A stretch of 4,763 bases of DNA, from the IMG/VR virus record IMGVR_UViG_2609459844_000002, positions 1 to 4,763 of that record, one strand, 5' to 3'. Of this stretch, positions 1 to 4,227 are shown piece by piece (position 1 is the first letter of the stretch; each line of letters opens with the position of its first letter). The notes beneath the pieces are model-generated. The model did not search any database. It was not told the DNA's origin and saw only the letters and a list, made by a program, of their open reading frames with translations. The DNA is from a virus. Lineage: Duplodnaviria > Heunggongvirae > Uroviricota > Caudoviricetes. A program made the position numbers and the translations under genes.

Positions 1-55
1 GAGCAATTGCCTTCTAAGCAATCGGTCACTGGTTCGAATCCAGTACAACGCGCCA
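1..55 (+). tRNA. tRNA-Arg (anticodon UCU), 3' portion; 5' end lies outside the window
   Basis: Foldable by eye: anticodon stem 6-10/18-22 (ATTGC/GCAAT), 7-nt loop CTTCTAA with anticodon TCT at 13-15, U33 and A37 present; 5-nt variable loop; T-arm ACTGG-TTCGAAT-CCAGT (28-44); acceptor 3' strand 45-51, discriminator G52, CCA 53-55. Lambdoid and Stx phages carry rare-codon Arg tRNAs (argN/argO type) downstream of Q. Confidence 0.7.
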
Positions 56-69
56 CACTTATTTTCCCT

Positions 70-96
70 GGCTCGCTTTTGCGGGCCTTTTTTTTT
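70..96 (+). terminator. Rho-independent terminator downstream of the tRNA
   Basis: Stem GGCTCGC (70-76), loop TTTT, stem GCGGGCC (81-87) with one G-U pair, followed by a run of nine T (88-96). Confidence 0.55.
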
Positions 97-293
97 AAAT
101 GTCTCACAATTCAGACGGTTGACTGTTGTCTGGTTTGCGGGGAGTTTGTTAAAAGAAACTGGCATGGTGAATCCCCCTGTGCGGAGGGGCAATCAGCGAG
201 TAGGTATATGGGATAATCGCGGATTCAGGTGCTGGTACTGAATTCACCGGGAGGCACCCGGCACCATGCAATGGCACATAGCGCCACTCTCCA

Positions 294-320
294 GCCCCTC
301 TCCGGAGGGGCTTTCTTGTG
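294..320 (+). terminator. Putative rho-independent terminator
   Basis: Perfect 7-bp stem GCCCCTC (294-300) / GAGGGGC (305-311), loop TCCG, followed by the T-rich stretch TTTCTTGTG. Confidence 0.45.
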
Positions 321-323
321 GGC

Positions 324-352
324 AAAAAAAGCCCGCGCTGGGAGACGCGGGC
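324..352 (-). terminator. Putative rho-independent terminator for leftward transcription
   Basis: Perfect 7-bp stem GCCCGCG (331-337) / CGCGGGC (346-352) with an 8-nt loop, preceded on the + strand by A7 (324-330), which is a U7 tail on the - strand transcript. Confidence 0.4.
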
Positions 353-449
353 GGCAAGGAATAAACAATAAAACGTGAAGTAATATTTCAGCTGGCGAAT
401 AATACCCCATAGTAATCACTCTGCGCAACTGCGCGGTCTTTTTCGAATT

Positions 450-504
450 GCGGGCTGTCGTCTCTCTTCTGCCATTGTCCTGTAACTTCCGGACTTCAGC
501 CCGC
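450..504 (+). repeat. Perfect 8-bp inverted repeat (GCGGGCTG ... CAGCCCGC) with a 39-nt spacer, in the leader of the esterase gene
   Basis: Read directly: 450-457 is the reverse complement of 497-504. Lies about 40 nt upstream of the start at 546. Function unknown (leader stem-loop or protein-binding site). Confidence 0.5.
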
Positions 505-545
505 TCCTCATTTTACTCACAATATTATCCCGGCCGGGAGGATTC

Positions 546-1481
546 ATGGCATTTAAACACTATGATGTTGTCAGGGCGGCGTCGCCGTCAGACCTTGCGG
601 AAAAGCTGACACACAAACTGAAAGAGGGCTGGCAGCCATATGGCGGACCGGTTGCCATTACGCCGTACACACTGATGCAGGCGGTGGCTATTGAAGGAGA
701 TCCACAGGTCGGCCCTTCATCTGAGCCGGACTGGTTCTACGTGGTTGTGCTTGCCGGACAGTCCAACGGCATGGCCTACGGTGAAGGGCTTCCGTTACCG
801 GATTCTTACGATGCTCCGGATCCGCGCATTAAACAGCTGGCGCGCCGCAGCACGGTAACTCCGGGTGGAGAGAGTTGTACGTATAACGACATCATCCCGG
901 CTGACCACTGTCTGCATGATGTGCAGGATATGAGTACGCTGAATCATCCGAAGGCAGACCTGAGCAAAGGGCAGTACGGCTGTGTCGGCCAGGGCTTACA
1001 TATTGCCAAAAAACTGCTTCCGTATATCCCGAATAACGCGGGGATCCTGCTGGTACCATGCTGTCGTGGTGGTTCGGCATTCACCCAGGGCGCGGAGGGG
1101 ACATTCAGTGCGGACACGGGGGCCAGCCAGGATTCGGCACGCTGGGGTGTGGGTAAACCGTTATATCAGGACCTGATCGCACGCACCAAAGCGGCATTAC
1201 AGAAGAACCCGAAAAATGTGTTGCTGGCGGTGTGCTGGATGCAGGGAGAGTTTGACATGAGCGCCGCCACCTACGCACAGCAACCTGCGCTGTTTACAGC
1301 CATGCTGAAGCAGTTTCGTGCTGACCTCACTGTGTTTAACGCGCAGTGTCATGGTGGCAGTGCTGTAAATGTGCCGTGGATTTGTGGTGACACGACGTAT
1401 TACTGGAAAAATACATACGCTATTGCTGTGTCTCCGATGCTGTATGGGCTGGCAAAACTGGTCATTGCGCTGAAATCGTGA
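546..1481 (+). CDS. DUF1737-domain / SGNH-type (sialate O-acetylesterase-like, NanS-p-like) protein, 311 aa, possibly a short or truncated form
   Basis: Strong SD GGGAGGA 4 nt before the ATG. N-terminus (MAFKHYDVV...KEGWQPYGGPV) has the pattern typical of DUF1737. The LAGQSNGMAYGEG motif is the GQSN nucleophile block of the SASA/SGNH esterase family. The position, downstream of phage tRNAs and upstream of the lysis genes, is where lambdoid/Stx phages carry nanS-p paralogs. Confidence 0.8.
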   Translation: MAFKHYDVVRAASPSDLAEKLTHKLKEGWQPYGGPVAITPYTLMQAVAIEGDPQVGPSSEPDWFYVVVLAGQSNGMAYGEGLPLPDSYDAPDPRIKQLARRSTVTPGGESCTYNDIIPADHCLHDVQDMSTLNHPKADLSKGQYGCVGQGLHIAKKLLPYIPNNAGILLVPCCRGGSAFTQGAEGTFSADTGASQDSARWGVGKPLYQDLIARTKAALQKNPKNVLLAVCWMQGEFDMSAATYAQQPALFTAMLKQFRADLTVFNAQCHGGSAVNVPWICGDTTYYWKNTYAIAVSPMLYGLAKLVIALKS

Positions 1482-1580
1482 ACTTTAAAAAGATGAGTGC
1501 TGAACTTATTCGGGCAATGGCATTTGCCATTCGTATTGTGGCCATTGCTGTTCTGGTCTGGACAATCCGTTGGTGGTGAT

Positions 1581-2048
1581 ATGAACCGTGTTCTGTGTGT
1601 GGTGATTATTGTCCTGCTGGTAGCCTGTGGTGTGCTTAGTCTGGGGCTGAATCATTACCGTGATAACGCCATTACCTACAAAGCCCAGCGCGACAAAAAT
1701 GTCAGAGAACTGAAGCTGGCGAACGCGGCAATTACTGACATGCAGATGCGTCAGCGTGATGTTGCTGCGCTCGATGCAAAATACACGAAGGAGTTAGCTG
1801 ATGCGAAAGCTGAAAATGATGCTCTTCGTCGCAAGCTTGATAATGGTGGCAGGGTGCTCGTCAAAGGAAAATGCCCTGTGCCATCCTCAGCCGAAACCTC
1901 CAGCGCCTCCGGCATGGGCAATGATGCCACCGTCGAACTCTCTCCAGTTGCTGGACGAAACGTTCTCGGTATCCGGGACGGAATTATCCGCGACCAAACA
2001 GCACTGAGAACGCTTCAGGAATACATCAGGACGCAATGCCTTCGATGA
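1581..2048 (+). CDS. Rz: Rz i-spanin (inner-membrane spanin subunit)
   Basis: N-terminal TM segment followed by [59 protein letters not shown], near-identical to lambda Rz as I recall it. I place the start at ATG 1581 (the track's GTG at 1497 is upstream in frame) because it aligns with the lambda Rz N-terminus and is preceded by a GGTGG SD-like sequence. Confidence 0.9.
1801..2007 (+). CDS. Rz1: Rz1 o-spanin (outer-membrane lipoprotein), embedded in the +1 frame of Rz
   Basis: Wholly inside Rz in a different frame. Signal peptide plus lipobox (LIMVAGC), then the proline-rich stretch [19 protein letters not shown] 8 nt upstream. N-terminus MRKLKMML resembles lambda Rz1 (MLKLKMML). Confidence 0.85.
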
Positions 2049-2222
2049 TAGCGATAATTTTACTCATCATCCTTCACATCTGGCTCTGTAGACAGGGTGG
2101 TGATCACTTCTGGAGTGAATCCAGATTTAACATCTCATTGCTGATGCTTGATATTGAGCATCTTGCGCGCGGTAAGGGGCTGCGTTGAGATAAGAGCCAG
2201 TCATCACAAACACCAGGATTTA

Positions 2223-2248
2223 GCCTCGCATTCGCGGGGCTTTTTATT
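2223..2248 (+). terminator. Rho-independent terminator downstream of Rz/Rz1
   Basis: Stem GCCTCGC (2223-2229), loop ATTC, stem GCGGGGC (2234-2240) with one G-U pair, followed by TTTTTATT. Confidence 0.5.
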
Positions 2249-2266
2249 GCAACAAAGGTAAAGACG

Positions 2267-2554
2267 ATGGATGAAGAATATCGTAAAGACCTGCAATTGT
2301 GGTTTGGCCTGACGCATGCGTCGTTCTGCGTGATGCCGAGAGTATTCATGGAGGCTATGCCGCAAGAATGGCAAGAGAAGATGGCGCAGTTGCTTTTTGA
2401 GTATGGCGACACGATCAAAACGGATGTCTGCGGAGTTCACTGCTGTTTCGTTACTGCCAAAGACGGCAACAACCGCTTTATGAGGATGCCAGAAGATATT
2501 CTGAACTATCGTCATCCCCGGCGTGAGTTCATCGAATCATTTCTGAAGAAGTAG
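2267..2554 (+). CDS. Hypothetical protein, 95 aa
   Basis: ORF with E. coli-like codon usage (CTG, CCG, GCG, ACG common) and balanced charged/hydrophobic composition; weak SD (AAGG) about 8 nt upstream; begins just after the terminator at 2223-2248. No family recognised. Confidence 0.55.
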   Translation: MDEEYRKDLQLWFGLTHASFCVMPRVFMEAMPQEWQEKMAQLLFEYGDTIKTDVCGVHCCFVTAKDGNNRFMRMPEDILNYRHPRREFIESFLKK

Positions 2555-2647
2555 CCATTACAAAGTCTATCTGCGGGGGGCTTGATAAAGGTGCTTTCAC
2601 CTCGCTTAGCATGGTATGTTCTGACTACCAACTTTTTGGGAGGACAC

Positions 2648-2872
2648 ATGGAACTGATAAATGGACGGCCAGGCAGAGATTTTATAGTGGGAACATATAC
2701 CTACTCAGAAATTAAAGATCTTAACTTCATGGCTAAGGAAGAGAAAAGAGCTCGTGAAGAGCTAAAGCATCGGGGTTACGAATTGGCGTATATCAAGGCG
2801 GACTCTGAATGTAACGGGATGTTTGTCAGGGCGTACCGGGTCTATACTGACAAAGCGCCATCTAATGTCTAA
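2648..2872 (+). CDS. Hypothetical small protein, 74 aa
   Basis: ATG at 2648 preceded by GGGAGGA (2638-2644). The track's TTG start at 2582 is in frame but has no SD, so I prefer 2648. AT-rich relative to the flanking phage genes; a T6 run follows the stop. No family recognised. Confidence 0.5.
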   Translation: MELINGRPGRDFIVGTYTYSEIKDLNFMAKEEKRAREELKHRGYELAYIKADSECNGMFVRAYRVYTDKAPSNV

Positions 2873-2938
2873 ATATACCTCGGGCGGTTTTTTACGTTCA
2901 TTACCGTACGCAATTACAGCAGGCATTCATTGAGTGCC

Positions 2939-2947
2939 TGTGATAAT
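2939..2947 (+). promoter_or_regulatory. Candidate extended -10 promoter element (TGTGATAAT) for the 134-aa ORF
   Basis: TG at 2939-2940 plus GATAAT at 2942-2947 (5/6 match to TATAAT), about 60 nt upstream of the GTG at 3008. No good -35 element, which is compatible with an extended -10 promoter. Prediction by eye only. Confidence 0.3.
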
Positions 2948-3007
2948 GATTTATCAACGTGCTTGCAAACGGTATTCTAGACCTCCAATTATCCTAAGGA
3001 GGTTTTT

Positions 3008-3412
3008 GTGGTTAAAAATTTAGAATACATGAAGGGGATGCTTGAGGTATTTTTGAAAGCGAAAACTCCCTTTATATCTACAAAAGACTTAGCTAATGCG
3101 GGGTACGATATCTGCTCGAATGAAGGGATGTTTCATTATCTACTTCTTATTGAGCAAGGTTATATCAGTAATAAAGATCTAATAACGGATGACATAACTA
3201 AACTGGGCTACATGCGCCATTGTGGCCATATGCTAGATATGGGTACCGACGTGCGACTATCTGCGCAGGGACAAGAATTCGCCCAGGCATTAAATGAACC
3301 TACGGTTTTTGAGAAATTAAAGTCAATGAGCGATGCCCCTTTGAGTACAATCAAAGATGTTGGGCTGGAGTTAACGAAGGCCTATTTAAAGAAGAAATTT
3401 GGCCTCGAGTAA
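3008..3412 (+). CDS. Hypothetical protein, 134 aa, in AT-rich moron; possibly DUF2513-like
   Basis: Canonical SD AAGGAGG (2996-3002) 5 nt before GTG 3008 (an alternative ATG lies 21 nt downstream in frame). Coding segment is visibly AT-rich compared with the flanking phage genes. The N-terminal pattern and the GYDI...HYLLLIEQGYI motif resemble my recollection of DUF2513 phage proteins; unverified. Confidence 0.6.
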   Translation: MVKNLEYMKGMLEVFLKAKTPFISTKDLANAGYDICSNEGMFHYLLLIEQGYISNKDLITDDITKLGYMRHCGHMLDMGTDVRLSAQGQEFAQALNEPTVFEKLKSMSDAPLSTIKDVGLELTKAYLKKKFGLE

Positions 3413-3624
3413 AATTTCTACCCTCACGAGTTAAGTTGTTTTGTGATGGTTATTCGCAATGAATATCTTTAGCCACTGGCATTTGCTGGTGGTTTTTTTA
3501 TGCGCATCCCTCGCGCACCACAAAGGGAGTCTTTCAGTAGTGATTCTGAATATCAGTGTGATAAACGTATTTGATAATCATTATCATTTTTGGTGGGTCC
3601 TTTCCGGCGATCCGACAGGTTACG

Positions 3625-3636
3625 GGGCGGCGACCT
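3625..3636 (+). other. cosN: lambda-type 12-nt cohesive-end sequence GGGCGGCGACCT
   Basis: Exact lambda cohesive-end sequence, preceded by the lambda right-end sequence ...GATCCGACAGGTTACG and followed by lambda left-end sequence running into the Nu1 start. The cos region overall (cosQ side, cosN, cosB) spans about 3560-3800. Confidence 0.8.
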
Positions 3637-3732
3637 CGCGGGTTTTCGCTATTTATGAAAATTTTCCGGTTTAAGGCGTTTCCGTTCTTCTTCGTCATAA
3701 CTTAATGTTTTTATTTAAAATACCCTCTGAAA

Positions 3733-3789
3733 AGAAAGGAAACGACAGGTGCTGAAAACGGGCTTTTTGGCCTCTGTCGTTTCCTTTCT
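3733..3789 (+). repeat. cosB region: perfect 16-bp inverted repeat (AGAAAGGAAACGACAG / CTGTCGTTTCCTTTCT) flanking a 25-bp spacer; probable Nu1-binding R elements with an intervening IHF site
   Basis: Inverted repeat read directly (3733-3748 and 3774-3789). Position between cosN and the Nu1 start matches lambda cosB, where oppositely oriented R sites flank the I1 IHF site. Confidence 0.6.
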
Positions 3790-3813
3790 CTGTTTTTGTC
3801 CGTGGAATGAACA

Positions 3814-4227
3814 ATGGAAGTCAACAAAAAGCAGCTGGCTGACATTTTCGGCGCGAGTATCCGTACCATTCAGAACTGGCAGGATTTGCCCGTAATCAAG
3901 CTGGGTAACGCGCGGGTTGTCCTTTCCCGCCGCAGACGTCGTAAAAAGGGGCAGCGTTCATCCCTGAAAGGTGGCGGCAGCGTGCTTGTGGTGGGAAACC
4001 GTCGTATTCCCGGCGCGTTTATTCAGCAACTGAAAAATGGCCGGTGGCATGTCATGCAGCGTGTGGCCGGGAAAAACCGTTACCCCATTGATGTGGTGAA
4101 AATCCCGATGGCGGTGCCGCTTACCACGGCGTTTAAACAGAATATTGAACGGATACGGCGTGAACGTCTTCCGAAAGAGCTGGGCTATGCGCTGCAGCAT
4201 CAACTGAGAATGGTAATAAAGCGATGA
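3814..4227 (+). CDS. Deletion-fusion ORF: Nu1 N-terminus (23 codons) joined in frame to the C-terminal ~114 codons of tail protein Z
   Basis: MEVNKKQLADIFGASIRTIQNWQ is the lambda Nu1 N-terminus; DNA similarity to lambda Nu1 stops at about 3884. The rest (DLPVIKLGNARVVLSRRRRRKKGQRS...LRMVIKR) matches my recollection of the lambda gpZ C-terminus and ends in the ATGA stop/start overlap with U, as Z/U do in lambda. Probably a non-functional remnant. Confidence 0.75.
   Translation: MEVNKKQLADIFGASIRTIQNWQDLPVIKLGNARVVLSRRRRRKKGQRSSLKGGGSVLVVGNRRIPGAFIQQLKNGRWHVMQRVAGKNRYPIDVVKIPMAVPLTTAFKQNIERIRRERLPKELGYALQHQLRMVIKR

Follow-up and report, generated by a model that had tools for sequence, protein, structure and literature searches.

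A chimeric nanS-p reading frame, with high probability a deletion-derived pseudogene, in a decaying lambda-like prophage of Escherichia coli

We have identified a chimeric open reading frame (ORF) at positions 546..1481 of a 4,763-bp stretch of viral DNA, referred to throughout as the window. The ORF is, with high confidence, a nanS-p pseudogene derived by deletion in a decaying lambda-like prophage of E. coli. Its chimeric architecture, its breakpoint and the residues it has lost are directly visible when it is set beside intact relatives. The first 292 codons come from nanS-p and the last 19 from an unrelated small ORF. The features on which the analysis draws are listed below by window coordinates and strand.

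1..55, + strand: 3' end of a tRNA-Arg, part of the Ile-Arg-Arg tRNA cluster preceding the stx site in lambdoid phages (window position 1 is position 1501 of the related locus L001, where the tRNA-Arg is annotated at 1479-1555)
546..1481, + strand: chimeric ORF of 311 aa plus stop (ORF list; PHROG scan)
546..1421, + strand: nanS-p-derived part, codons 1-292, collinear with intact alleles of 616-618 aa
552..692, + strand: DUF1737 domain, residues 3-49 (Pfam PF08410, E=5e-16)
741..1331, + strand: partial SASA / SGNH type II esterase domain, residues 66-262 (Pfam PF03629, E=3.4e-13)
762..764, + strand: codon of Ser73, the nucleophile of GQSN, equivalent to NanS Ser19 (alignment to 3pt5, chain residue 30)
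1421..1422, no strand: deletion junction with a 2-bp TA microhomology (three-way view of the window, L003 and L001; BLAST end points)
1422..1481, + strand: foreign tail, 19 codons plus stop, the 3'-terminal stretch of a small hydrophobic ORF (L001 match; phrog_1115/3246)
1581..2048, + strand: Rz i-spanin, intact, 155 aa (Pfam Phage_lysis, E=1e-31, profile positions 1-125 of 126)
1801..2007, + strand: Rz1 o-spanin, 68 aa, embedded in Rz (ORF list; PF06085 Rz1 was called on this ORF in L004 and L006)

In the ORF list of the window, the 311-aa reading frame opens on the + strand with ATG, and a GGAGG Shine-Dalgarno sequence lies 7 nt 5' of it. The original prediction had described a DUF1737-like N-terminus and the GQSN nucleophile motif of sialate O-acetylesterases, and both were found: PF08410 matches residues 3-49, and GQSN occupies residues 71-74 (G71-Q72-S73-N74; window 756-767), with Ser73 aligned to NanS Ser19. 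Ser73 is conserved in 23 of 25 aligned sequences, these being the sequences that cover the region, and the WMQGEFD block is kept as well. The Pfam match of the 311-aa protein to the sialic-acid-specific acetylesterase (SASA) family covers profile positions 4-157 of 226 only, which represents the N-terminal two-thirds or so of the domain, and NanS-like sequence extends to residue 292. An NCBIfam search returned no family match for either the 311-aa or the intact protein.

The original prediction had given prophage NanS-p proteins as considerably longer and as carrying an extra C-terminal domain. This agrees with the relatives examined here, which are 616-618 aa (636-657 aa in Stx phages) and end in a DUF6645 / lectin-like domain (6yp6). 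The point at which the window ORF departs from them was mapped by BLAST. Window positions 1-1422 align without gaps, at 98.7% identity, to positions 3702-5123 of L003, a locus in a complete E. coli genome with an intact gene of 617 aa that bears the annotation DUF6645 / SASA family esterase. Within the nanS-p part there are 3 differences from the intact allele in 876 nt (one non-synonymous and two synonymous), with no stops or frameshifts, and residues 1-292 are 99.7% identical to the 617-aa allele (1 difference in 292). Window positions 1421-3669 match L001 6081-8329 at 99.96%, and in intact prophages this segment lies downstream of the endolysin. When the window, L003 and L001 were compared three ways, the left parent matched through window position 1422 and the right parent from 1421; the last nanS-p codon is 292 (GCT, Ala). 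Relative to L001, 2,763 bp are missing, and relative to L003, 3,420 bp. Between the two breakpoints, intact relatives carry the 3' half of nanS-p, a class II holin, a YdfR-family gene, lysozyme and small ORFs. The switch of collinearity at 1421/1422, with these intervening genes gone, marks the ORF as a pseudogene formed by deletion.

The donor of the last 19 codons is a small hydrophobic ORF (L001 5986-6141; WP_042004856.1) that is unrelated to nanS-p, normally sits between endolysin and Rz, and has a product ending ...IAVSPMLYGLAKLVIALKS. A PHROG scan of the 311-aa protein reproduced this division, with residues 1-295 matching positions 1-304 of 634 in phrog_143, the NanS-p family, and residues 292-311 matching the very C-terminal ends of phrog_1115 and phrog_3246, to which the donor ORF belongs. 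The tail is hydrophobic (mean Kyte-Doolittle 1.43) and contains no His. Two or three small hydrophobic ORFs stand in tandem in the endolysin-Rz interval of intact relatives. Just past the chimeric ORF, a 28-aa hydrophobic ORF (window 1493-1579, +) matches phrog_4493 and phrog_3246, which are families of the tail donor as well.

PMC9063846, citing Rangarajan 2011, presents NanS as an SGNH type II esterase with catalytic Ser19 and His301 and no catalytic Asp; the catalytic assignment followed here draws on this secondary citation and on conservation. The last SGNH block of NanS-p reads RSSH, RASH or RPTH (PMC10462455). An intact relative aligns with the NanS/YjhS structure 3pt5 over residues 60-379 (E=8.6e-120), and its C-terminal part, residues 422-613, aligns with the NanS-p lectin-like domain 6yp6. 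By this alignment, chain residue 312 of 3pt5 corresponds to NanS His301 and to His359 of intact NanS-p, within RPTHFSS. In an alignment of 25 sequences, this His block (R-x-x-H-F-S-S) was present in 24 of the 24 relatives, and the window protein had no residues there. The alignment with NanS and NanS-p that had been suggested for scoring catalytic residues thus finds Ser73 present and the His block missing. A C-terminal catalytic Asp/His block had earlier been looked for and not recognized; the last, His-containing block is truly absent, while the expectation of an Asp does not apply to this family, which works with a Ser-His dyad and R-x-x-H-F-S-S.

The extent of the loss goes well beyond one residue. 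On the 326-residue scale of NanS the ORF reaches only to about residue 236, short of His301, and the ~90 NanS-equivalent residues that it lacks take in a core strand and the terminal helix as well as the general base. Also missing are the linker and, by Pfam, the C-terminal lectin-like jelly-roll domain (DUF6645; 6yp6), which spans residues 422-613 in the intact relative. Structure was considered through an AlphaFold2 model of P0018, a close relative in which the esterase domain is complete. Confidence in the P0018 model was only moderate, with a mean pLDDT of 63.5; most 10-residue blocks from residue 200 to residue 330 scored 75-94, and the loop surrounding Ser73 was poorly modelled. AlphaFold confidence is not a dependable gauge of how stably a protein folds. 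Foldseek gave NanS 3pt5 as the best structural match to the model (E=3e-32), with 56% identity across 320 columns and a TM of 0.82 for the target. Four elements of the model lie past the breakpoint, namely helix 292-300, strand 310-313, the loop bearing the His, and helix 362-380. Given the missing general base and fold elements, the 311-aa protein is predicted to have no esterase activity, and it is probably unable to fold stably. The suggestion that this copy is truncated and inactive is in keeping with what was found, in that Ser is kept while His, ~90 fold residues and the C-terminal domain were removed by the deletion after codon 292, although inactivity is a prediction from these losses.

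With respect to genomic context, the ORF lies between the tRNA-Arg upstream and the remnant of the lysis cassette downstream, in the same order as in L001, L003 and L010. ARAGORN reported no tRNA in the window, the tRNA-Arg being cut by the window edge. In the Stx1a phage (L010), the genes run stx1A, stx1B, nanS-p (616 aa), holin, endolysin and Rz, and homology to the window begins about 120 bp upstream of nanS-p. The stx-equivalent site therefore lies upstream of window position ~421, and nanS-p is its downstream neighbour and not its occupant. The original prediction had put the ORF at the stx-equivalent moron site, which is imprecise, as nanS-p comes immediately downstream of stx in Stx phages. 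The spacer between tRNA and nanS-p (window 57-545), which is the true stx-equivalent site, is variable among relatives. In some it holds iraM, encoding an anti-adapter protein, on the opposite strand (compare L001 1847-2182 and L002 2467-2802), and in Stx1 phages it holds stx1AB. Window 57-545 has neither and contains a fragment of a pseudogene annotated in relatives. Terminator-like hairpins are found in this spacer at 70-87, 293-312/331-352 and 421-436. A promoter scan detected no sigma-70-like site on the + strand upstream of ORF 546..1481, in keeping with a reliance on the phage late promoter and Q.

Downstream, intact relatives continue from nanS-p (617-618 aa) through holin, YdfR, lysozyme and small ORFs to Rz. 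Rz and Rz1 persist in the window, orphaned because holin and endolysin were deleted. Beyond them, a 95-aa hypothetical protein (window 2267-2554, +) matches only positions 139-230 of 233 in phrog_3527; it could represent the C-terminal portion of a larger phage protein, yet it is annotated at 95 aa in intact relatives.

Occurrence of the junction was assessed by megablast, using the window and an 86-nt junction probe as queries. Neither the set of complete E. coli genomes (5,426) nor that of phage records (50,697) gave a match spanning it. An exact-protein look-up placed the 311-aa protein on 16 draft or metagenome contigs, six of which were retrieved (NCBI, ENA, JGI and Logan). The retrieved contigs are up to 286 kb long and share a chromosomal context, with the integrase next to potC/potD, cobB and nagK, and all six match the whole 4,763-bp window at 100%. 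This identity points to one recent event and not to a clade, and the junction is a real allele of one recent lineage, neither an assembly artefact nor the mark of a divergent clade. Lambdoid prophage regions are repetitive (a median of 4 matching places per genome) and draft assemblies may mis-join them, which could in principle have hidden an intact nanS-p and lysis cassette in the true genome. That an assembly or sequencing error should have produced the exact protein on 16 contigs, and the same 100% match and chromosomal context in six contigs from four independent sources, is next to impossible.

The surroundings of the ORF are those of a lambda-like prophage in advanced decay. A 137-aa ORF at 3814..4227 (+) is a second deletion fusion, in which ~24 residues from the start of Nu1 run into the C-terminal part of tail protein Z. 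It matches Pfam positions 1-33 of Nu1 (terminase small subunit) and positions 74-190 (117 positions) of minor tail protein Z, and lambda/Nu1 homology ends at window 3884. The fusion implies that the genes for the large terminase subunit, the portal and the head were lost in a second deletion. Just upstream of the Nu1 stub the prophage retains a lambda-type cos region, with the 12-nt cosN GGGCGGCGACCT at window 3625-3636 (+). Taken with its flanks (3600-3813), the region shows 98.6% identity to phage lambda / DE3, in which the matching stretch bears the annotation 'cos site'. Downstream of the window, in the longer contigs, a truncated tail protein V directly precedes a C-terminal fragment of the tail tip protein J. 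In L005 (14082-15571) the shortened major tail protein V has 131 aa and the J fragment 346 aa, which suggests a further internal deletion of G, T, H, M, L, K, I and most of J. Upstream, the DUF968-RusA-Q segment was lost in four of the six retrieved contigs. Two forms can be told apart about 0.8-5.6 kb upstream of ORF 546..1481. One (L004/L008) still has hok/gef, DUF968, RusA and the Q antiterminator, along with a DNA methyltransferase of the full 349 aa, and in the other (L005, L006, L007 and L009) DicB is followed directly by a methyltransferase stub of 133-149 aa. The stub form indicates a further deletion within the lineage.

We propose that a single illegitimate recombination at the 2-bp TA microhomology would have deleted about 2.8-3.4 kb, reaching from nanS-p codon 293 across holin, YdfR and endolysin into the small hydrophobic ORF upstream of Rz. 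Reading frames would have matched by chance, such that 19 foreign codons would be translated to the stop of the donor ORF. The product would retain DUF1737, the capsid-binding domain, together with the N-terminal ~230 residues of the SGNH fold, Ser73 among them. It lacks a core beta-strand, the loop of the general-base His, the helix that ends the fold at its C-terminus, and the lectin-like, carbohydrate-binding domain. The event would then be neutral collateral damage of a deletion that also took the lysis genes. As a counterpoint, the retained part is nearly unmutated and has a strong Shine-Dalgarno sequence, and the protein could still be made. The presence of only 3 differences from the intact allele in 876 nt is attributed to the recency of the deletion and not to selection on the fragment.

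An open ORF with a good ribosome-binding site, the retention of Ser73 and the GQSN and WMQGEFD blocks, and the occurrence of the exact protein on 16 contigs would also be expected of a distinct, functional short NanS-p that manages without the C-terminal third, for example by using another residue as general base. Such a variant is extremely improbable: NanS-p homology ends exactly at the DNA deletion junction, PHROG assigns the 19 terminal residues to a different protein family, and the His block found in every one of the 24 relatives is missing with no His in the tail to replace it. The core strand and terminal helix of the fold are gone as well, the six retrieved contigs are identical over the window as expected of one recent event, and the junction occurs in none of the complete E. 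coli genomes or phage records searched. Junction mapping and the chimeric PHROG profile likewise led us to reject a distinct short family. The original prediction had left room for a distinct short variant, which is contradicted by a tail taken from another ORF and by a junction unique to one decaying prophage lineage.

It is also conceivable that the esterase is dead and the protein serves a non-catalytic role, through DUF1737 as a decoration or decoy on the capsids of co-resident lambdoid phages, or through the tail as a membrane anchor. DUF1737 was recently reported as a capsid-decoration or capsomer-binding domain in phi24B gp84; in phi24B it is reported to bind capsid hexons as a hexamer, and most DUF1737 proteins are single-domain (bioRxiv 10.64898/2026.04.10.717836). 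The domain is intact in the window protein, the foreign tail is hydrophobic, and E. coli strains carry several lambdoid prophages each, as reflected in the number of matching places per genome. Set against this, the prophage has lost its own head genes (the Nu1::Z fusion), the Q antiterminator needed for late-gene expression is gone from most of the retrieved contigs, terminator-like hairpins stand upstream with no promoter-like site found there on the + strand, and the fragment bears no sign of selection. The 19-residue tail is, in addition, only part of the hydrophobic segment of its parent. Taken as a whole, a non-catalytic role is very unlikely. The more particular proposal, that DUF1737 with a dead esterase stub is expressed as a decoy decoration protein on co-resident lambdoid or Stx capsids, is highly improbable; if true, it would mean that virion properties are altered or that a competitor phage is interfered with.

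A neutral, deletion-derived pseudogene remains the reading that we favour, and ORF 546..1481 is an ordinary member of a known family, of a kind already known. It carries little weight beyond annotation, for which the fitting label is truncated chimeric nanS-p pseudogene and not "DUF1737 domain-containing protein" or "SASA family esterase". The dosage of nanS-p genes is linked to growth of EHEC on 9-O-acetylated sialic acid, and the ORF should not be counted as a functional copy in tallies of that dosage. It does provide a clean example of how one microhomology-mediated deletion can ground a lambdoid prophage, through loss of holin and endolysin, and leave behind an open but dead fusion ORF.

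In EHEC prophages, NanS-p occurs in multiple functional copies, with three domains and a length of 636-657 aa in Stx phages (PMC10462455, PMC8065619). The window ORF is the same gene as NanS-p of 933W (Z1466/933Wp42) and phi24B (vb_24B_21/gp84), occupies the same slot, with the tRNA/stx region on one side and the lysis cassette on the other, and shares DUF1737, GQSN and the central SGNH blocks. It differs in being 311 aa long as opposed to 616-657, in lacking block IV (R-x-x-H), ~90 fold residues, the linker and the lectin-like domain, and in having a foreign 19-residue tail. With chromosomal NanS (YjhS, 3pt5), a 9-O-acetyl-Neu5Ac esterase, it has in common a homologous esterase core and the nucleophile Ser; NanS has neither DUF1737 nor a lectin domain but is complete, whereas the window ORF ends before His301. 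Further parallels are other broken nanS-p alleles, four of which (P0035, P0067, P0105 and P0018) were recovered from E. coli in the homologue search. P0035 is an in-frame fusion of nanS-p (1-~247) to the C-terminus of Rz, annotated by one source as 'i-spanin Rz', P0067 is a fusion of nanS-p to tail protein L, and both P0105 and P0018 are frameshifted. In the ETEC6 genome a DUF1737 pseudogene occupies the nanS-p site. As in these decayed alleles, a deletion or frameshift in the prophage has left an N-terminal NanS-p fragment fused to unrelated sequence; the window ORF is distinguished by its own breakpoints and partner (nanS-p codon 292 joined to the small ORF that precedes Rz) and is an independent event. 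The existence of several independently broken alleles argues that truncated nanS-p remnants are a routine by-product of prophage decay.
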